Below are positions 35,963 to 46,788 of a DNA stretch of 46,788 nt, in pieces. The position numbers and the translations under genes were made by a program. Where the stretch lies: IMG/VR virus record IMGVR_UViG_2690315742_000007; one strand, written 5' to 3'. How positions within the stretch are numbered: position 1 is the first letter of the stretch; the number at the start of each line of letters is the position of its first letter. This stretch comes from a virus. Its lineage: Duplodnaviria > Heunggongvirae > Uroviricota > Caudoviricetes. Under the pieces are notes generated by a model, which worked only from the letters and a program-made list of their open reading frames with translations, did not search any database and was not told the DNA's origin.

Positions 35963-36255
35963 TATCGCACTACAACATGCTTAGGGCAAGTCACGAAGGA
36001 AGTCAGAAAGTAGTCGTAAGAACGGTGATCACTGTCCGCTTTGTGCCAGGAGCAGCCATTGCTAAGTCCATCCTGTATTGTGCAGGTCAGCTCGTTTTTA
36101 AAGAGTCCGGCCATCATCTTACTGGTACAGACACCATATACTTTGTGACGGTCAGGCTACATATGCACAACTCAACTTATTCATCTATTTTTTGCTTTAG
36201 CATGTCAGTGTTGCTTTCTCGTCGGCGGGTGAGCGGTGACCTGACCTGTCGATAA
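35950..36255 (+). CDS. ydfV: Hypothetical protein, possibly YdfV-like
   Basis: 101-aa ORF between relB and flxA; only length and position support it, and its start overlaps the relO palindrome. Confidence 0.3.
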   Translation: MSLQVSHYNMLRASHEGSQKVVVRTVITVRFVPGAAIAKSILYCAGQLVFKESGHHLTGTDTIYFVTVRLHMHNSTYSSIFCFSMSVLLSRRRVSGDLTCR

Positions 36256-36407
36256 AGGAACGTAACACGTTTTATGCAACACCCGCATGCGGCAGAAAAT
36301 TATTGCCGAACGTTTACCCCTGTCAACAAGCTTTACTTTCTGAGGCGCGCCAGCCCGCGAGGAAAACAATCTGAACATCAAACAATTAATGACACAAGAA
36401 ATACGAT

Positions 36408-36434
36408 TAAAGATTTTTTTGTGCATGCCGATAG
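36408..36434 (+). promoter_or_regulatory. Sigma28 (FliA) class-3 promoter upstream of flxA
   Basis: TAAAGATT, 11-nt spacer, GCCGATAG against consensus TAAAGTTT-N11-GCCGATAA; about 25 nt upstream of the flxA ATG. Confidence 0.6.
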
Positions 36435-36457
36435 TGCTTTTTTAAAAGGAGAAATCT

Positions 36458-36790
36458 ATGTCTGTCACAATTCAGGGAAATACCTCAACCGTTATTTCAA
36501 ACAACTCCGCCCCGGAAGGAACATCAGAAATAGCCAAAATCACAAGACAAATTCAGGTGCTGACTGAAAAGCTTGGGAAAATCTCATCGGAAGAGGGGAT
36601 GACGACACAGCAGAAAAAAGAAATGGCTGCATTGGTACAGAAGCAAATTGAAAGCCTCTGGGCTCAACTGGAGCAGTTGTTAAGGCAGCAGGCAGAGAAA
36701 AAGAATGAAGACGCGACAGTTCAGCCTGATAAAAAAGAAGAGAAAAAAGACGATACAAATACCGCTGGCACCATTGATATTTACGTCTAA
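36458..36790 (+). CDS. flxA: FlxA (FliA-regulated protein)
   Basis: 110 aa, MSVTIQGNTSTVISNNSAPEGTSEIAKITRQIQVLTEKLGK... Confidence 0.8.
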   Translation: MSVTIQGNTSTVISNNSAPEGTSEIAKITRQIQVLTEKLGKISSEEGMTTQQKKEMAALVQKQIESLWAQLEQLLRQQAEKKNEDATVQPDKKEEKKDDTNTAGTIDIYV

Positions 36791-36804
36791 GTGACAGCCG
36801 TATT

Positions 36805-36828
36805 GTGGCCCTCATCGGGCCACTTTTC
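36805..36828 (+). terminator. flxA rho-independent terminator
   Basis: GTGGCCC-tcatc-GGGCCAC hairpin followed by TTTT, 15 nt after the flxA stop. Coordinates approximate. Confidence 0.6.
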
Positions 36829-36999
36829 GCCATCAGCCTTTTCTTTAAAGACATATTATCTTTGTATCATTTCTGATAGTTAACATTACAAGATATAAGT
36901 AATGGACGCACTCCCAATTAGTCTATTTAAATCGCCACGAGTTTAACTGACAACCCATGATCAATTATGAATTGCAACTATTTCTGTAGTCACTTTTGT

Positions 37000-38650
37000 G
37001 GGGACAGTCCACAAAACTGCCAACTTCCGCTTCTTGCTCTTAGCGGACATTAGCATAGGCTATTTACCATAACGCCTCATTACGCGCACCGCCCAGACTG
37101 ACTCAGCGCGTTTCTGGCATATCCCCGGTAAAACAAGTAACAAACCACCCGAAAATGAACACCAGAAACGCGACTTAAGAATCTACCCTATGAATGGATA
37201 TGCACTCAACCGAATCGATCTTGGTTTCAATCTTTTTTATCGGGATCAGGCTTCTTTTTAGGTAACTTCGGGGGCTTAACTTGCTGATGACTTTGCGTTC
37301 GGCGCGTAAGCCAGGGATGGTCAGCTTTAGGTTTAACATAGTATTTTGAGCGTAAATCAATACGGGCATTATCCACTCGTTCATGGACACTCTTTTCATC
37401 ATCCAGTGGTATAGGCTCCGGGCCATCAACATACTTTTCCCAGCCCAGCGCTTTCCCGTCATACAGAACGTTAATTTCACCGTCAAAGTTCTCGCATACA
37501 GTAACAACCGAATGCCTAAGTCGATATCCCCGGCCCTCACTGCGTACCTGAAACGCACTGCTTTTGTACTGGAAAGTGAGATTTTTAGACAGAACGCGCT
37601 TCGCCTGTAGGCTGAAGATATAACCCAGTTCCTCTTCAGAATGGTGCACATCAAGATGAGCATTATCAGTAGTACGAGGCGACGTAGCGAACCGGTTGTT
37701 ATAGGCTTCAATAAAGGTCGGCAACCATGCATTTGCTGTTTCAATATCACTGATATTCTGAAGCCGCATTTCTTTGACCAGCCTGTCCTGTAGTGTCTGA
37801 TTGGCGCGCTCTACCCGCCCTTTTGCCTGCGGGCTGTTGGCATGGATTGGCTCGATGCCCAGTGTCTTTATCGCACGAGTGAACTGGGTCAGCTCACCTT
37901 CCCGCTCTGGGTTATTTACCCTGAATATACTGTGTCTATCAGAGTAGAGAGCGAGCGGTACGCCATGATCATTAAGGTAACCCCGGAGGGTTTCCATGTA
38001 AGCCCGGGTTGTTTCAGCAGGCACAAAACGCAACGCCATCAACGCACTGGTGGCATCATCAATGAAAACGATCAGTGTACATCTGGGGCCTCGATTTTCA
38101 AACCAGTCATGAGGTGAGCCATCAATCTGGATCAGTTCACCGTAAGATGGTCGTCGCATGCGGCGTTGATATATACGGGCAATTTTACGACGGCGTTCAC
38201 GCCATAACCCCTCTTCTATCATCCACTTTCTGAGAGTTTCAACGGATAAAGATAAACCGTGTATCTCGCGCAATTTTTCGCACGCAAACGTAGGTCCAAA
38301 ATCAGCGTAACGGCCTTTGAGGAGTGAAATTACTGTTGCTCTGAATTCAGTAGAAAAGGAATTATTAGGACGCTTTCCACGTCGGTGGGAAACCAGACCA
38401 GAAGGCCCTTCATTTCTATACCGTTGCACCAGACGTTTAACCTGCCGAATAGAAATGCCAATGCGTGCCGCAGCTTGTTCCTGAATAATCTGAAGTCGGT
38501 GGAGTTCCTTATGACTCATCGTAACAGTCTCTTTGATCATGAAAAATCCCCCAGAGAATTGTCTGGGGACATTTTAGAATGGTTCAAAGGGGACATTACA
38601 GCTTGGTGTTAACAATAGCCTGCTTCTCCGTGCCTTTCGGCACGTAAGAG
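37000..38650 (-). mobile_element. Probable insertion element carrying the rve transposase; ends not resolved
   Basis: Transposase gene at a position that in K-12 Qin holds integrase and ydfW/ydfX remnants. I could not find clean terminal inverted repeats by eye; hairpin-like GGGGACA motifs occur near both ends. Confidence 0.4.
37227..38540 (-). CDS. DDE (rve/integrase-core) transposase-like protein with N-terminal HTH; IS481-like by architecture
   Basis: 437-aa ORF: N-terminal HTH (IGISIRQVKRLVQRY), central DDE region with a ...SPQAKGRVERANQTL... motif. Family call is from motif pattern only. Confidence 0.65.
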   Translation of the reverse strand: MIKETVTMSHKELHRLQIIQEQAAARIGISIRQVKRLVQRYRNEGPSGLVSHRRGKRPNNSFSTEFRATVISLLKGRYADFGPTFACEKLREIHGLSLSVETLRKWMIEEGLWRERRRKIARIYQRRMRRPSYGELIQIDGSPHDWFENRGPRCTLIVFIDDATSALMALRFVPAETTRAYMETLRGYLNDHGVPLALYSDRHSIFRVNNPEREGELTQFTRAIKTLGIEPIHANSPQAKGRVERANQTLQDRLVKEMRLQNISDIETANAWLPTFIEAYNNRFATSPRTTDNAHLDVHHSEEELGYIFSLQAKRVLSKNLTFQYKSSAFQVRSEGRGYRLRHSVVTVCENFDGEINVLYDGKALGWEKYVDGPEPIPLDDEKSVHERVDNARIDLRSKYYVKPKADHPWLTRRTQSHQQVKPPKLPKKKPDPDKKD

Positions 38651-38874
38651 GCTAACCTACATGTGTCTAGCATGAAATTGGCCTCAGATTAATGTTAAGC
38701 GTCTTGCAGGACGCGTAATGTTAACTGGGGCTTTTCTCTATCTGCCGTTGGTGTCCATGCCCGAGGCAGATAGCCTCAAGCACCCGCAGTCATTCTACTT
38801 AACTAAGATTTCCCCGCAAACCGTTTTTGTCCAGCACAGTAAATATCCAACTAAACCAATGGAGTTCGCTGTAT

Positions 38875-39093
38875 TTACCGCCAGTATTCAATGCACATGA
38901 CCGCCATGAACACCCCTAAAAAAAGGGCATTTATATATCCAAATATTAATATCAAAACATCAACTTTTTCCATATACCTTGCTGTGAAGATGATGGGCAT
39001 ACATGATGCGAACAACCAGAACGCAACAAACAAAAACTGCAATGCGTTTTTCATTATTCCTCCTACAATCAATGTGCAATTACATTTAAACAC
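38875..39093 (-). CDS. Hypothetical small membrane protein (two predicted TM helices)
   Basis: 72-aa ORF, strongly hydrophobic (LQFLFVAFWLFASCMPIIF ... ILIFGYINALFLGVFMAVMCI). No recognisable family. Confidence 0.3.
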   Translation of the reverse strand: MFKCNCTLIVGGIMKNALQFLFVAFWLFASCMPIIFTARYMEKVDVLILIFGYINALFLGVFMAVMCIEYWR

Positions 39094-39099
39094 ACCTCA

Positions 39100-39784
39100 A
39101 TTTGGCCGGACATATAAATATCTAAACCAGAAAAAATCACTTACATAGCGTTACAAACTCTTTAGTCTAAAGGTTCATCGTAAAACATTCCCCATACTTA
39201 TCAGTCCGTTCCGCGCCAGGTAGCTCATTGCCTTATCTGGCAACCTGTAATCAGGTTTCCGCTTTTTCAGTTGGCTGGTCGTTTAACCGACATAGTTAAT
39301 CCATTAATCTAGTTGCCGGATGTTGGTGGATTTTCGCGTTTTAGTTGTTCATAAAAGTGCACAGCTTTAACCAGTTCTTCTGATGTAACTGGGACTGGTG
39401 AGGCAGTGAATAAGGCCTGAATTTGATAGTTCGGCCTGTCGTTACAATCCTCTTTTTTCGGTACATATTTCCAGTCACCAGACCACTACTTCCCCTGAAA
39501 GTCCGTAACGCCTTTTTTCACGTAGCGATATCGCCATGCCACTGGTTTTGCTTGCCCCGCCGTTTCATGCCCTTCCTGATAATTAATCTCGCTCATTCAT
39601 CGCCCCACTCATCACAATATGCTTCGACCGGAGTTTTTCCCGCTTCATAGTCATCACGCTAGGATTCGACATCAGCAGCACTTCCACCGCGTAACTCACC
39701 ATAGTCCATTAATAGTTCATCCCGCTCTTCAAAACTGATGTTATATTTAGCTGAACAAAAATCAGCCACTTTGTTCTTCCTCAT
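39100..39784 (-). pseudogene. Decayed early-region ORF remnants downstream of the ydaT-like gene
   Basis: Minus-strand reading gives a string of short ORFs (40, 23, 35 and about 58 codons) interrupted by stops; the first starts in an ATGA overlap with the ydaT-like stop. No ORF of 60 aa or more on this strand. Confidence 0.35.
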
Positions 39785-40236
39785 CGTCTTTTATTTCGTG
39801 GTATGAGTAATGTTTCACGATCCACTACGGCAGGATCAGCAAAAAGCAGTCCGGACTCCACCACATCGCCATATTCTTTGTTTAACCCGGCGATCATGCA
39901 CGTGATGCTTTTTCCGTCAGTAATTTCACGATACAACCTGAAATCATTAATCCGGATAGCCTCCATAATTGCAGGCACTAGCGCCGTGAACTTTTCACGC
40001 TTATCCCTGGTGTCGATAGCCTTCCAGCGTTCAAATATCTTCACTCGATTAACGCCAAGCGCTCGCTGATCAATCGCGCCACCTTCATATGTGACACGCT
40101 GAACATCGATGTTCGGGCGCTCTTTCAAAGCCCAGAATGCTTCAGTGATTAATATCGTCGCCTGCTCCTGTGTCATTCCTGGTCGACATATCCAGGCATC
40201 CAGAGCCTCACGAGCCTGTTCAGGAGTGATTTTCAT
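39781..40236 (-). CDS. YdaT-like protein, second gene of the dicC (cro-side) operon
   Basis: 151-aa ORF overlapping the dicC 3' end; resembles Rac YdaT (shared ...ALVPAI.../...ALLPAI... region). K-12 Qin has only fragments (ydfX/ydfW) here. Confidence 0.5.
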   Translation of the reverse strand: MKITPEQAREALDAWICRPGMTQEQATILITEAFWALKERPNIDVQRVTYEGGAIDQRALGVNRVKIFERWKAIDTRDKREKFTALVPAIMEAIRINDFRLYREITDGKSITCMIAGLNKEYGDVVESGLLFADPAVVDRETLLIPRNKRR

Positions 40237-40450
40237 TGTTCAACCGCCCCGCCCGCTTCGTCTTACGATATTCATCATAAACTTTGGGATCATACTGAAG
40301 CTCCCCGCCAGATGCCTCCTGTAGACGCATCGCGCGACCTTCGGGAACTAAATCCCCTTTCCAGCTATAAAGCGAAGCCAAACGAATACCTGCTGCTTGT
40401 GCAAGTTTTGTTTTTGAACCGAAATACAAAAGAGCGTCAGTTTTAAGCAT
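40220..40450 (-). CDS. dicC: DicC, Cro-like repressor of the immunity region
   Basis: 76 aa, MLKTDALLYFGSKTKLAQAAGIRLASLYSWKGDLVPEGRAMRLQEASGGELQYDP... Confidence 0.85.
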   Translation of the reverse strand: MLKTDALLYFGSKTKLAQAAGIRLASLYSWKGDLVPEGRAMRLQEASGGELQYDPKVYDEYRKTKRAGRLNNENHS

Positions 40451-40533
40451 TTAAAACACCTTTATTGTTAGTCATAACTAACAAGATAGATGTTAACAAA
40501 AACATAGTCAATACGATTTAGCATTAGCTAACT
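40451..40533. promoter_or_regulatory. dicA-dicC divergent promoter/operator region
   Basis: Palindromes TTGTTAGTcataACTAACAA (40465..40484), TGTTAACA and TTAGCATTAGCTAA between the divergent dicC and dicA starts. Confidence 0.6.
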
Positions 40534-40941
40534 ATGGAAACAAAAAATTTAACTATCGGCGAACGCATCAGGTATCGTCGGAAAAACCTCAAACACACCC
40601 AAAGGTCTCTTGCTAAAGCCCTGAAAATCTCCCATGTGTCTGTATCACAATGGGAACGGGGTGATAGTGAACCTACAGGGAAGAACCTTTTTGCCCTCAG
40701 CAAAGTATTGCAATGCTCACCAACATGGATTCTATTTGGCGATGAAGACAAGCAACCAACACCACCTGTTGAGAAGCCAGTTGCCTTATCCCCCAAAGAA
40801 CTAGAGCTCCTTGAGCTGTTTAATGCACTGCCAGAATCAGAACAGGATACCCAGCTCGCCGAAATGCGAGCTCGAGTAAAAAACTTCAATAAACTCTTTG
40901 AAGAATTACTAAAAGCCCGTCAGCGGACAAATAAAAGATAA
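40534..40941 (+). CDS. dicA: DicA repressor (cI analogue, HTH-XRE)
   Basis: 135 aa, METKNLTIGERIRYRRKNLKHTQRSLAKALKISHVSVSQWERGDSEPTG... Confidence 0.9.
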   Translation: METKNLTIGERIRYRRKNLKHTQRSLAKALKISHVSVSQWERGDSEPTGKNLFALSKVLQCSPTWILFGDEDKQPTPPVEKPVALSPKELELLELFNALPESEQDTQLAEMRARVKNFNKLFEELLKARQRTNKR

Positions 40942-41107
40942 CATCATCAATGAGTTATCTTTTACCACATCAATTATGTTAGCTATAGCATACAAAATCA
41001 CTTGACCGATATGTTAGTCATGGCTAATCTTGTTTGCATCAACACACCGCACGGTGTTCTCAGCAAACAGTTCCGCTACCCCAGCGTTAAGGGGAAATGA
41101 GGTCAGC
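40942..41107 (+). promoter_or_regulatory. P_dicB promoter/operator region (DicA-repressed)
   Basis: Further GTTAGC/GTTAGT-type half-site motifs (tgttagctatagcatac, tgttagtcatggctaa) between dicA and ydfA. Confidence 0.4.
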
Positions 41108-41263
41108 ATGGATACTATCGATCTTGGCAACAACGAATCTCTGGTGTACGGCGTGTTTCCAAACCAGGACGGCACGTTCACCGCAATGACGTATACCAAA
41201 AGCAAAACGTTTAAAACCGAAAATGGTGCCCGTCGCTGGCTGGAAAGAAACTCAGGTGAGTGA
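41108..41263 (+). CDS. ydfA: YdfA
   Basis: Internal ATG of track ORF 41030..41263 gives 51 aa: MDTIDLGNNESLVYGVFPNQDGTFTAMTYTKSKTFKTENGARRWLERNSGE. Confidence 0.75.
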   Translation: MDTIDLGNNESLVYGVFPNQDGTFTAMTYTKSKTFKTENGARRWLERNSGE

Positions 41264-42585: not shown

Positions 42586-42677
42586 AACAGTTCCGTAATA
42601 AATATCCGGTTTCATTCTTATATGCCAGCAATGGCAGGGATTTGTTCATCCTTAAATCTGTCATGAGGTTAAAACAA

Positions 42678-45149
42678 ATGAGTAAAGTCTTTATTTGCGC
42701 CGCTATTCCTGACGAACTGGCAACAAGGGAAGAAGGCGCTGTGGCTGTAGCCACAGCCATTGAAGCTGGCGACGAACGCCGTGCTCGAGCAAAATTTCAC
42801 TGGCAATTCCTGGAACATTATCCGGCTGCTCAGGACTGCGCTTATAAATTTATTGTCTGCGAGGATAAACCTGGCATACCCCGCCCTGCCCTCGATTCAT
42901 GGGATGCTGAATATATGCAGGAAAACCGCTGGGATGAGGAGTCTGCTTCTTTTGTCCCGGTTGAGACTGAATCCGATCCGATGAACGTCACTTTTGACAA
43001 GCTGGCCCCTGAAGTACAGAACGCTGTCATGGTTAAGTTCGACACATGTGAAAACATCACCGTTGATATGGTTATTAGCGCACAGGAATTGTTGCAGGAA
43101 GACATGGCAACATTCGACGGACATATCGTTGAAGCGTTGATGAAAATGCCAGAAGTTAACGCCATGTATCCGGAGCTTAAGTTGCACGCCATTGGGTGGG
43201 TTAAGCATAAATGTATTCCTGGTGCTAAATGGCCCGAAATTCAGGCAGAGATGCGCATCTGGAAAAAACGTCGCGAAGGTGAACGCAAGGAAACCGGAAA
43301 ATACACGTCTGTTGTTGATCTCGCCCGCGCCAGAGCCAATCAACAGTACACTGAAAATTCAACAGGAAAAATCAGCCCGGTCATTGCTGCCATTCATCGC
43401 GAATACAAGCAGACATGGAAAACACTGGATGACGAACTGGCCTACGCTCTCTGGCCTAGTGATGTGGATGCCGGAAACATTGACGGCAGCATCCATCGCT
43501 GGGCAAAAAAAGAAGTTATCGACAACGACCGCGAAGACTGGAAGCGTATCTCGGCATCAATGCGCAAACAGCCTGATGCCCTTCGCTACGACCGCCAAAC
43601 TATTTTTGGCCTTGTCCGTGAGCGTCCGATCGACATTCACAAAGATCCCGTAGCACTGAACAAATATATCTGCGAATACCTGACGACAAAGGGCGTGTTT
43701 GAGAATGAAGAAACAGACCTGGGCACTGTTGATGTTCTCCAGTCATCAGAAACACAAACTGATGCAGTGGAAACTGAGGTATCTGATATCCCAAAAAATG
43801 AAACCGCGCCGGAAGCTGAACCATCTGTAGAGCGTGAGGGGCCGTTCTATTTCCTCTTCGCAGATAAGGACGGAGAAAAATACGGTCGCGCAAACAAACT
43901 CTCTGGTCTGGATAAGGCACTGGCTGCTGGCGCCACTGAAATCACAAAAGAAGAATATTTTGCCCGAAAAAATGGCACATACACGGGCTTACCGCAAAAT
44001 GTAGATACCGCTGAAGATTCAGAACAACCAGAGCCGATAAAAGTTACCGCTGACGAAGTAAACAAAATTATGCAGGCAGCCAATATCAGCCAGCCTGACG
44101 CCGATAAGTTGCTTGCTGCATCACGTGGTGAATTTGTTGAAGGGATTAGTGACCCGAATGATCCGAAATGGGTTAAGGGGCTCCAGACCCGCGATTCTGT
44201 GAACCAGAACCAGCATGAATCGGAACGGAACTACCAAAAAGCGGAACAAAACAGTCCAAATGCGTTACAAAACGAGCCAGAAACGAAACAGCCTGAACCA
44301 GTAGCGCAACAGGAAGTGGAAAAAGTCTGCACCGCCTGCGGTCAGACCGGCGGCGGCAACTGCCCTGATTGTGGCGCGGTGATGGGCGACGCAACATACC
44401 AAGAAACATTCGATGAAGAGTATCAGGTTGAAGTTCAGGAAGATGATCCGGAGGAAATGGAAGGCGCTGAACATCCACACAAGGAGAACACTGGCGGCAA
44501 TCAGCATCACAATAGCGATAATGAAACTGGCGAGACGGCAGATCACCCAATTAAGGTGAACGGTCATCACGAAATCACATCCACCAGCAGGACGTGTGAC
44601 CATCTAATGATCGACCTTGAAACCATGGGAAAAAATCCTGATGCCCCGATCATCTCAATAGGTGCAATATTTTTCGATCCGCAAACCGGAGATATGGGAC
44701 CGGAATTTAGTAAGACTATCGATCTGGAAACTGCTGGCGGAGTCATTGATCGGGACACCATTAAATGGTGGCTTAAGCAATCACGCGAAGCGCAATCTGC
44801 CATTATGACCGATGAAATCCCGTTAGATGATGCACTGTTACAATTGCGAGAATTTATCGACGAAAACTCCGGTGAATTTTTTGTTCAGGTTTGGGGAAAT
44901 GGAGCCAACTTCGACAACACGATTTTGCGCCGTTCATACGAACGGCAGGGGATCCCCTGCCCGTGGCGTTACTACAACGATCGCGATGTACGCACAATCG
45001 TTGAGCTGGGGAAAGCCATAGACTTCGATGCCAGAACGGCTATTCCATTCGAAGGTGAGCGCCATAATGCACTTGATGACGCCCGTTACCAGGCAAAATA
45101 CGTTTCAGTTATCTGGCAAAAACTGATCCCGAGTCAGGCTGATTCTTAA
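42678..45149 (+). CDS. ydfE: YdfE-like multidomain protein, full length: N-terminal YdfE domain, acidic linker, zinc ribbon, C-terminal DEDDh-type 3'-5' exonuclease-like domain
   Basis: 823 aa from internal ATG (MSKVFICAAIPDELATREEGAVAVA...). Zn-ribbon CTACGQTGGGNCPDCG; C-terminal motifs DLETMG ... WGNGANFD ... HNALDDA typical of DnaQ-like exonucleases. Confidence 0.6.
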   Translation: MSKVFICAAIPDELATREEGAVAVATAIEAGDERRARAKFHWQFLEHYPAAQDCAYKFIVCEDKPGIPRPALDSWDAEYMQENRWDEESASFVPVETESDPMNVTFDKLAPEVQNAVMVKFDTCENITVDMVISAQELLQEDMATFDGHIVEALMKMPEVNAMYPELKLHAIGWVKHKCIPGAKWPEIQAEMRIWKKRREGERKETGKYTSVVDLARARANQQYTENSTGKISPVIAAIHREYKQTWKTLDDELAYALWPSDVDAGNIDGSIHRWAKKEVIDNDREDWKRISASMRKQPDALRYDRQTIFGLVRERPIDIHKDPVALNKYICEYLTTKGVFENEETDLGTVDVLQSSETQTDAVETEVSDIPKNETAPEAEPSVEREGPFYFLFADKDGEKYGRANKLSGLDKALAAGATEITKEEYFARKNGTYTGLPQNVDTAEDSEQPEPIKVTADEVNKIMQAANISQPDADKLLAASRGEFVEGISDPNDPKWVKGLQTRDSVNQNQHESERNYQKAEQNSPNALQNEPETKQPEPVAQQEVEKVCTACGQTGGGNCPDCGAVMGDATYQETFDEEYQVEVQEDDPEEMEGAEHPHKENTGGNQHHNSDNETGETADHPIKVNGHHEITSTSRTCDHLMIDLETMGKNPDAPIISIGAIFFDPQTGDMGPEFSKTIDLETAGGVIDRDTIKWWLKQSREAQSAIMTDEIPLDDALLQLREFIDENSGEFFVQVWGNGANFDNTILRRSYERQGIPCPWRYYNDRDVRTIVELGKAIDFDARTAIPFEGERHNALDDARYQAKYVSVIWQKLIPSQADS

Positions 45150-45473: not shown

Positions 45474-45507
45474 CTAAAAGCCACACTAACTAATGAGAGA
45501 AGTTGAA

Positions 45508-46788
45508 ATGAAATATCCGACAGGCGTGGAAAACCATGGAGGGAAATTACGTATCTGGTTTGTTTATAAAGGCGTAAGAGTCAGGGAAAACCTGGGGGTT
45601 CCTGACACAGCAAAAAACAGGCGCGTTGCAGGTGAGCTACGCGCCTCTGTTTGTTACGCAATAAAAACTGGTGTTTTCGACTATGCAAAACAGTTTCCCT
45701 CCTCACGCAATCTGGAAAAATTTGGTGAGACTCGACAAGATTTAACCATAAAAGAACTGGCTGAAAAATTTCTGGCACTGAAAGAAACTGAAGTCGCAAA
45801 AACATCACTCAACACATACCGTGCCGTCATCAAAAATATCCTGAGCATAATCGGTGAAAAAAATCTTGCCTCATCGATTAATAAAGAAAAATTACTGGAG
45901 GTTCGTAAAGAGCTACTGACTGGATACCAGATCCCCAAAAGTAACTATATTGTTACACAACCAGGGAGATCGGCTGTAACTGTAAATAATTACATGACAA
46001 ATCTTAACGCCGTGTTCCAGTTTGGTGTTGATAACGGTTACCTGGCAGATAACCCGTTTAAGGGGATCTCGCCATTAAAGGAATCAAGAACCATTCCGGA
46101 TCCTCTTTCGCGGGAGGAATTCATCCGTCTTATCGATGCGTGCAGAAATCAGCAAGCCAAAAATTTATGGTGTGTTTCTGTTTATACTGGCGTTCGCCCT
46201 GGTGAGCTGTGTGCACTTGGATGGGAGGACATAGATCTGAAAAATGGAACAATGATGATCAGGAGAAATTTAGCAAAAGACCGTTTCACGGTACCAAAAA
46301 CACAGGCGGGAACCAATCGGGTCATTCATCTTATTAAGCCAGCAATCGACGCTCTCCGGAGTCAGATGACATTAACGAGACTGAGCAAAGAGCATATCAT
46401 TGATGTTCACCTCAGAGAGTATGGCAGAACAGAAAAACATAAATGCACCTTTGTTTTTCAACCTGAAGTGTCAGCGAGAGTAAAAAATTATGGTGACCAT
46501 TTTACCGTTGACTCAATAAGGCAGATGTGGGACGCAGCGATAAAACGTGCCGGACTCCGCCATCGAAAATCATATCAGTCGAGACATACTTATGCCTGCT
46601 GGTCGCTGACAGCTGGTGCTAACCCGGCATTTATAGCAAACCAGATGGGCCATGCAGATGCGCAAATGGTATTTCAGGTATACGGAAAATGGATGTCTGA
46701 AAACAATAATGCACAGGTAGCTTTGTTAAATACACAGTTAAGCGAGTTTGCCCCAACCATGCCCCATAACGAAGCAATGAAAAATTAA
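45508..46788 (+). CDS. intQ: Tyrosine site-specific integrase
   Basis: About 426 aa (track ORF starts at 45493); C-terminal catalytic region with R...HxxR...Y (SRHTYACWS ... GHADAQMVFQVYGKW). Stop codon is the last 3 nt of the window. Confidence 0.8.
   Translation: MKYPTGVENHGGKLRIWFVYKGVRVRENLGVPDTAKNRRVAGELRASVCYAIKTGVFDYAKQFPSSRNLEKFGETRQDLTIKELAEKFLALKETEVAKTSLNTYRAVIKNILSIIGEKNLASSINKEKLLEVRKELLTGYQIPKSNYIVTQPGRSAVTVNNYMTNLNAVFQFGVDNGYLADNPFKGISPLKESRTIPDPLSREEFIRLIDACRNQQAKNLWCVSVYTGVRPGELCALGWEDIDLKNGTMMIRRNLAKDRFTVPKTQAGTNRVIHLIKPAIDALRSQMTLTRLSKEHIIDVHLREYGRTEKHKCTFVFQPEVSARVKNYGDHFTVDSIRQMWDAAIKRAGLRHRKSYQSRHTYACWSLTAGANPAFIANQMGHADAQMVFQVYGKWMSENNNAQVALLNTQLSEFAPTMPHNEAMKN

Follow-up and report, generated by a model that had tools for sequence, protein, structure and literature searches.

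The stretch of DNA analysed here, referred to below as the window, comprises the 46,788 nucleotides of the IMG/VR virus record IMGVR_UViG_2690315742_000007 (Caudoviricetes), and the subject of this study is the open reading frame (ORF) of 151 codons that directly follows the gene dicC in it. The region belongs to a Qin-like lambdoid prophage in which decay has begun, of whose immunity region it is the right arm, and between positions 39400 and 41000 it matches E. coli C, WG5, C122, NCTC122 and A27 with 100% identity. The repressor gene dicA and the divergently oriented dicC are separated by a spacer of 83 bp that contains a palindrome, and the proteins encoded by both of them are 100% identical to DicA and DicC of K-12. 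DicC exceeds the curated thresholds of its own family (Table 1) and of the Pfam family P22_Cro (PF14549; 44.1 bits vs 30.2), and by these scores and its divergence from dicA it belongs to the DicC / P22 Cro family. The 76-aa dicC and the 151-aa ORF, both of which begin with ATG, share 17 nt (40220-40236). An earlier note on this DNA, made from the letters alone, had given the coordinates, the sizes and the overlap of the two genes correctly; it was also right in placing the downstream gene behind the DicA-repressed dicC promoter and in stating that K-12 Qin holds only a fragment at this position. Its description of the downstream gene as an intact copy is wrong, because the last 31 of 173 residues are gone, a foreign tail of 9 residues has taken their place, and the NCBI Prokaryotic Genome Annotation Pipeline (PGAP) calls the gene a pseudogene. 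We hold it to be highly probable that the ORF is a decayed CII-like gene of the YdaT family, which lies after the Cro analogue dicC and was truncated by a deletion.

The deletion and the missing end of the gene

The truncation is evident from a tblastn comparison with phage genomes. Over residues 1-142 the ORF has 100% identity with the 173-aa 'cII' of Escherichia phage PhiR42_1 and 97% identity with its counterpart in phage HannyBb, annotated as 'CII-like transcriptional activator', and in both cases the match ends at residue 142. The 173-aa genes of these two phages (PV340562 and PP925841) overlap their cro-like genes in the same way as in the window, but they are of full length and are followed by an O-like replication gene, whereas the window lacks residues 143-173 and 2.2 kb of the DNA downstream. 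In blastn alignments, window positions 39812-41200 correspond to 5425-4037 of the PhiR42_1 locus (L002) and window positions 37065-39811 to 10426-7680 of the same locus. The lost stretch holds the last 31 codons of cII, the replication gene O, a lygF/ren-like gene and a methyltransferase gene. The ORF ends in nine foreign residues because the 2254-bp deletion joins other DNA to the broken gene. At the junction no microhomology beyond about one base was found, and hence there is no insertion sequence (IS) or site-specific signature; the deletion is an illegitimate one.

The length of 151 aa seems complete only because Rac YdaT has 140 aa, while the full length in the clade to which the ORF belongs is 173 aa. 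The window copy is thus a truncated and not a full member of the YdaT family. This state was already known, since RefSeq annotates the gene as such and the literature anticipates it: the PGAP entry in E. coli C reads 'toxin YdaT family protein; incomplete; missing C-terminus'. Of 5426 complete E. coli genomes only 9, all from one small lineage, carry the junction, whereas 2121 have the gene at 80% of its length or more. Many other truncated or chimeric versions of the gene can be seen in public protein data. The ORF is a deletion-shortened CII-like gene and represents the ordinary decay of a resident prophage.

The same gene has decayed further in K-12 Qin. YdfX (b1568), which has been named as the Qin homologue of YdaT (PMC11879457), occupies the same place and has the same 17-nt overlap with an identical dicC, and its 96 aa consist of residues 1-93 of the same protein (99% identical) followed by 3 foreign residues. 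The deletion in K-12 is larger (window positions 37412-39956 are absent from K-12, after a matching segment at 36001-37411), and YdfX keeps only the DNA-binding domain, whereas the ORF of the window keeps 142 native residues including the helix at 111-127.

Table 1. Coordinates of the genes and signals around dicA and dicC in the window
Feature	Position	Strand	Remarks
151-aa ORF	39781..40236	-	ATG start; next gene after dicC
Foreign tail, 9 codons (LLIPRNKRR) and stop	39781..39810	-	read from DNA joined by the deletion; without counterpart
Homologous part of the YdaT-family (CII-like) gene	39811..40236	-	codons 1-142 of 173; limits identical to those of the PGAP pseudogene
Deletion junction	39811..39812	.	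2254 bp of PhiR42_1 (L002 5426-7679) absent; from blastn, junction sequence and L002 annotation
dicC	40220..40450	-	Cro analogue; NCBIfam NF007282 DicC, 159.5 bits vs cut-off 130
Candidate YdaT-box TTGAAC-AATGAA-AATCAC	40226..40243	-	overlaps the start codon of the ydaT-like gene; register -7..+10 of ATG
-10-like hexamer TACGAT	40264..40269	+	candidate analogue of PRE; start predicted at about 40276, with transcription across dicC in antisense, in the direction of dicA
Palindromic operator TTGTTAGTCATAACTAACAA, OR-like, 20 bp	40465..40484	.	dicA-dicC intergenic; inverted repeat I1, direct repeat D2
Promoter-like site TTGACT, 17 nt, TATCTT	40483..40511	-	dicC/ydaT-like operon, PR analogue; consensus match only
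dicA	40534..40941	+	CI-like repressor of the immunity region; NCBIfam NF007257 DicA, 234 bits vs cut-off 101
Two more operator copies TATGTTAGCTATAGC, TATGTTAGTCATGGC, OL-like	40975..41027	.	40975-40989 and 41012-41027; past dicA, before ydfA; repeats D2, D7, I2, I5

Relation to YdaT and to lambda CII

The 151-aa ORF is related to YdaT, and the resemblance to Rac YdaT that was claimed in the earlier note stands up in several separate searches. The ORF scores 24.5 bits against the Pfam family PF06254 (YdaT_toxin; gathering score 21), and this family is also the precomputed Pfam match of all close homologues. PHROG 163, 'CII-like transcriptional activator', matches with an E value of 6e-36, the alignment covering residues 1-142 only, and BLASTP against Rac YdaT returns a single block of 29 residues around the recognition helix (41% identity, E 1e-6). 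No NCBIfam model matched the ORF. A profile built from 24 family members and searched against the PDB retrieved 3C4R (4.5e-14) and 8BT1 (1.4e-13) and no other entries; these are the two solved structures of the YdaT family, and 8BT1 is the YdaT of CP-933P. The family profile was needed for this result, as the ORF alone gave only marginal PDB matches (E about 0.05). In the AlphaFold2 (AF2) model of the full-length relative P0003 (173 aa), residues 1-106 are predicted with a local distance difference test score (pLDDT) of 82-94, and a Foldseek search of the PDB with this model gave 8BT1 and 3C4R as the sole credible matches (probability 1.00, target template modelling score about 0.61). Residues R70 and W71 of the recognition helix, invariant or nearly so in the family alignment, are present in the ORF. 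Together, the AF2 and Foldseek results and the R-W pair indicate that the ORF possesses the N-terminal POU-like helix-turn-helix (HTH) domain of the YdaT family.

CP-933P YdaT and 3C4R share with the ORF the Pfam family, the gene position and the predicted fold, in which an N-terminal POU-like HTH domain is followed by a C-terminal helix, but the identity is about 28%. The Qin-type clade differs from them in that its alpha2-alpha3 loop is longer, in an additional C-terminal helix at 135-164 that is not present in the solved structures, and in a recognition helix that reads FERW instead of F-RW. Rac YdaT (b1358) belongs to the same family and has the same role after a cro-like gene, but its BLASTP match to the ORF is confined to the 29 residues mentioned above, and its 140 aa contrast with the 173 aa of the Qin type. 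Lambda CII, a tetrameric HTH activator encoded after cro, is a functional analogue of the YdaT-type protein. Its site lies at the 5' end of its own gene, in the -35 region of the weak reverse promoter PRE that makes repressor; contrastingly, it is no relative in sequence, and it recognises direct TTGC repeats and not an inverted repeat. A Pfam scan of the ORF with E values up to 0.1 returned PF06254 only. By analogy, the ORF is therefore a functional counterpart of lambda CII without being a member of the lambda CII sequence family.

The names 'YdaT_toxin' and 'toxin YdaT family protein' are still in use in Pfam and PGAP, and growth is slowed or stopped by over-expressed Rac YdaT or by DicC alone (PMC11879457, PMC11430063). 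These points would favour the reading of the earlier note, in which dicC and the 151-aa ORF are a module of the toxin/antitoxin or exclusion type. Such a role is unlikely, and for the pair as a module we consider it highly improbable. In CP-933P the proteins YdaS and YdaT were shown experimentally to be analogues of Cro and CII; YdaT activates the silent promoter PRE933P, located in the interval between ydaS and ydaT, and toxicity of YdaT was not detected (PMC8630535). Rac YdaT binds the box over its own start codon and raises the expression of racR, and when over-expressed it is toxic, partly via the host gene rcsA (PMC11879457). Since toxicity has been reported for Rac YdaT but was not detected for CP-933P YdaT, it is not a property of the family; toxicity and control of rcsA are known for the YdaT of Rac. 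For both CP-933P and Rac, Cro and CII roles have been assigned to YdaS and YdaT and a toxin-antitoxin system has been rejected (PMC8630535, PMC9986795, PMC11879457, letter PMC5917428), and the toxin/antitoxin framing is thereby outdated. The published experiments on these two pairs also speak against a toxin that has a cellular target and is neutralised when its partner protein binds it (PMC8630535, PMC11879457).

The first gene of the pair does not fit such a module either. DicC falls below the threshold of the YdaS_toxin family (PF15943; 18.3 bits vs 30), to which it thus cannot be assigned, and gives no BLASTP alignment with Rac YdaS, so that of the alignment proposed between the two pairs only the YdaT half was obtained. 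Rac ydaS ends 25 nt before ydaT, whereas dicC overlaps its ydaT-like gene. As dicC shows no detectable similarity to ydaS, the two pairs are positional and functional counterparts and not homologous modules. DicC has been described as a Cro analogue, and the slower growth on its over-expression requires no Qin gene (PMC11430063). Escherichia phages and loci of Citrobacter, Raoultella and Salmonella all show the order of repressor, cro-like, YdaT-like, O-like and DnaC-like genes, and a position between cro-like and replication genes that is kept in four genera argues against a toxin/antitoxin module, as does the truncation of the ORF. In the window the gene lies directly after dicC, and the O gene downstream is deleted, though PhiR42_1, HannyBb and the loci of the three other genera keep it. 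Nothing in the analysis points to an exclusion function.

DNA signals over the start codon and around dicA

The candidate YdaT-box of the window agrees in register with the footprinted Rac YdaT-box ATGATTCATGAAAATCAA, which lies over the ydaT start codon (PMC11879457), and in architecture with the CP-933P box (TTGATT-N6-AATCAA, compared with TTGAAC-N6-AATCAC in the window). The pattern xTGAxx-N6-xxTCAx was found at -7..+10 in all 15 family contexts, and 14 of the 15 have a TANNNT hexamer on the opposite strand that starts 33-34 nt upstream of the ATG. The background for TANNNT at any position pair is 0.53 of 15, and elsewhere the count never exceeds 3. The 15 contexts are clusters from 181 family loci whose upstream sequences do not align with each other; some of the clusters are partly similar, and the number of truly independent cases is somewhat smaller. 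The locus search in genome contigs had given 8 loci only and the first viral scan only near-identical copies; diverse loci were obtained when members of the 165-aa and Rac-type subfamilies served as seeds. The upstream cro-like gene either runs through the left half-site, in one of two reading frames, or stops short of it, and therefore the constraint acts on the DNA and not on the protein.

The centre of the box in the window is located about 41.5-42.5 bp upstream of the start predicted for the TACGAT hexamer. By analogy with lambda PRE, where the activator stands in for a poor -35 element, this spacing is the geometry of an activator that would make such a replacement. From the sequence and this analogy we infer that TACGAT may function as a reverse promoter in the window. 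At the level of sequence, an inverted-repeat box and an adjoining candidate reverse promoter are both present. No reverse promoter within dicC emerged from a generic sigma-70 scan, which is expected if the promoter depends on an activator and equally gives it no support. A transcript from TACGAT would run antisense through dicC into dicA, in agreement with PRE933P, and in CP-933P a YdaT-dependent reverse promoter adjoins the gene (PMC8630535, PMC9986795). The Rac prophage resembles the window both in the register of the box over the start codon and in the spacing of a reverse hexamer, TATGAT, which lies 26 bp from the footprinted box. The promoter activated by Rac YdaT has been reported as PracR4, a BProm prediction situated 190 bp away (PMC11879457). 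By analogy with PRE933P, the YdaT-dependent promoter of Rac may instead be adjacent to the box.

HannyBb is homologous to the window only over 39812-40348, and the two have in common the last 112 nt of dicC and the CII-like gene, with 98% identity. The mosaic joint lies inside the cro-like gene, and the repressor and the 5' half of cro of HannyBb are different. As the homology starts within cro, the box and the reverse -10 hexamer were inherited along with the activator gene.

A TGTTAG-type operator motif flanks dicA in three copies (Table 1), which is the classic layout of an immunity region. The copy between dicA and dicC overlaps the dicC promoter-like site at its -10; this site is the sole sigma-70-like match in 39000-41200. 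The palindrome TTGTTAGTCATAACTAACAA is presumably a DicA site, judging from the literature cited in PMC11430063. DicA represses the operon during normal growth (PMC11430063). The operator layout in the sequence fits the bistable DicA/DicC switch of the literature (as cited in PMC11430063). Only once the repression by DicA is lifted would the truncated ORF be made.

This repression is one reason to ask whether the ORF is silent, a pseudogene from which no product arises or whose product is immediately degraded, so that only dicA, dicC and the DNA signals, namely the operators, the box and the reverse promoter, would count for the cell. The pseudogene call of PGAP agrees with this, together with the disorder predicted for the foreign tail and the many truncated or chimeric versions elsewhere, which imply that the 3' part is freely lost. 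On the other side, translation signals coupled to dicC survive intact, and induction of dicC by norfloxacin and cold shock has been reported in public RNA-seq data (PMC11430063), which means that the operon is not always silent. We regard complete silence as rather unlikely.

The shortened protein and the decay of the prophage

In the explanation that we propose, dicA encodes the CI-like repressor, the divergent dicC the Cro analogue and the next, translationally overlapped gene the CII analogue, the 173-aa form of which precedes the replication genes in intact relatives. By analogy with the YdaT proteins of CP-933P and Rac, this protein would bind as a tetramer to the inverted repeat over its own start codon, and the bound protein would turn on the adjoining reverse promoter, the putative PRE analogue, which reads back through cro to the repressor gene. 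The 2254-bp deletion took the last 31 codons, the O gene and its two neighbours, and what it left, 142 native and 9 foreign residues, retains the whole DNA-binding domain and the helix 111-127 but not the conserved last helix 135-164.

The AF2 models illustrate the extent of the loss. In the model of the 173-aa form the DNA-binding domain is followed by helices at 111-127 and 135-164, whereas in that of the window ORF the N-terminal domain is complete (pLDDT 84-94) and helix 111-127 is kept, but residues 128-151 are predicted to be disordered. The ORF does not have a complete C-terminal oligomerisation region, as homology stops at residue 142 of 173 and helix 135-164 is gone. Four residues beyond the break are conserved among 24 family members with identities of 17-93%: D143, A151 and Y156 without exception and R157 nearly so. 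In CP-933P YdaT the POU-like HTH domain is followed by a long helix that forms a four-helix bundle for tetramerisation, and YdaT1-96, from which the long helix was removed, does not bind DNA (PMC9986795). The corresponding helix of Rac YdaT comprises residues 95-128, and its oligomers are disrupted when proline is substituted at 107 and 110 (PMC11879457); in the family alignment the second half of this Rac helix aligns with the deleted part. Sequence conservation and the models suggest that the shortened protein would probably be impaired. If it is made once the repression by DicA is relieved, it would be a crippled or altered transcription factor and not a toxin, and it would have no role left without the replication genes.

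Several observations count against the view of a decayed gene. The core of the four-helix bundle in 8BT1 (native residues about 99-124) aligns to positions 103-132, which the window ORF retains. The C-terminal half of both AF2 models is of low confidence, and AF2 does not decide between oligomeric states. There is no sign of further decay, as the 426 nt that are kept match a phage allele with 100% identity. Finally, the box of the window is a poor palindrome (3/6) with 3 mismatches to the CP-933P consensus, and when this consensus, TTGATT-N6-AATCAA, was searched across the window with 3 mismatches, 21 matches were found against 28 expected. Since the match of the box is by itself within chance, the case for it rests on its register and on the family-wide conservation.

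Some of these points would suit a 151-aa protein that is still an active regulator, made together with DicC when DicA fails. Such a protein would raise the transcription of dicA from the reverse promoter and possibly act on host promoters, with effects on growth and morphology like those of Rac YdaT, which is toxic and regulates host rcsA (PMC11879457). The complete N-terminal domain, helix 111-127, the recognition-helix residues R70 and W71 and the region aligned to the CP-933P bundle core are all kept; nothing has changed in the start codon, in the purine-rich stretch that precedes it or in the overlap with dicC, and there are zero mutations in the 426 nt. We consider continued activity possible but doubtful, as 31 residues that include the invariant D143, A151 and Y156 and the nearly invariant R157 are gone and the residues from 128 onwards are predicted to be disordered. 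In addition, the lack of detected toxicity of CP-933P YdaT (PMC8630535) means that toxicity is not implied by the family, and a junction confined to 9 of the 5426 genomes, in one small lineage, gives no sign of selection. The decayed CII-like gene remains the preferred explanation. A distinctly unlikely variant is that the 142+9-residue protein binds the box or forms mixed oligomers with the CII-like proteins of incoming Qin-type phages, and would so have become a DicA-controlled host regulator or an interfering 'anti-CII' factor. If this were true, the anti-CII factor would skew the choice between lysis and lysogeny of related superinfecting phages.

The surrounding prophage shows decay of differing degree. 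The DNA downstream of the ORF, 39175-39784(-), is also decayed and is in the same state in PhiR42_1 (99.96% identity); PGAP lists 39175-39596 as a hypothetical gene that is frameshifted and contains an internal stop, and a 41-aa ORF at 39659-39784(-) occupies the place of a DUF7167 family protein in the annotation of other genomes. Further on, 37227-38540(-) is an open ORF of 437 aa for an ISNCY-type transposase, to the C-terminal end of which K-12 ydfW (49 aa) corresponds; PGAP splits this region in E. coli C into 'ydfW' and a partial ISNCY transposase. The E. coli C reference CP020543 carries a 1217-bp ISSen4 of the IS3 family inserted at about 38741-38748, where the flanking alignments overlap by 8 bp, and the window has no copy of it. 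The window thus stems from a near relative or another isolate of that lineage and not from the CP020543 record itself. On the other side of the immunity region, 42642-45149(+) is an open ORF of 835 aa with a TTG start, which spans the 2472-bp 'exonuclease' gene annotated by PGAP in E. coli C, and excisionase and integrase genes follow at 45493-46788(+). In K-12 Qin the region from exonuclease to integrase is reduced to ydfE, insD7 and intQ pseudogenes. The open exonuclease ORF and the excisionase and integrase genes therefore indicate that the left arm of this prophage is less decayed than that of K-12 Qin. Near-identical copies (97%) of the E. coli prophage gene after dicC also occur in metagenome-assembled genomes labelled Bacillota, Veillonella parvula and Collinsella, and these are most likely due to binning contamination.

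The result is mainly a correction: the name 'toxin YdaT' and a length like that of the Rac protein mimic an intact toxin, while the gene is actually a remnant of a CII-type lysogeny regulator. It also forms part of a series of decay in Qin-like prophages, which leads from the full 173-aa protein with its replication genes, through the window with 142 residues and the replication genes lost, to YdfX with 93 residues. The family-wide box over the start codon and the reverse -10 hexamer at fixed spacing may help in the study of these switches, and they suggest that the YdaT-dependent promoter of Rac may adjoin the box instead of lying 190 bp away.

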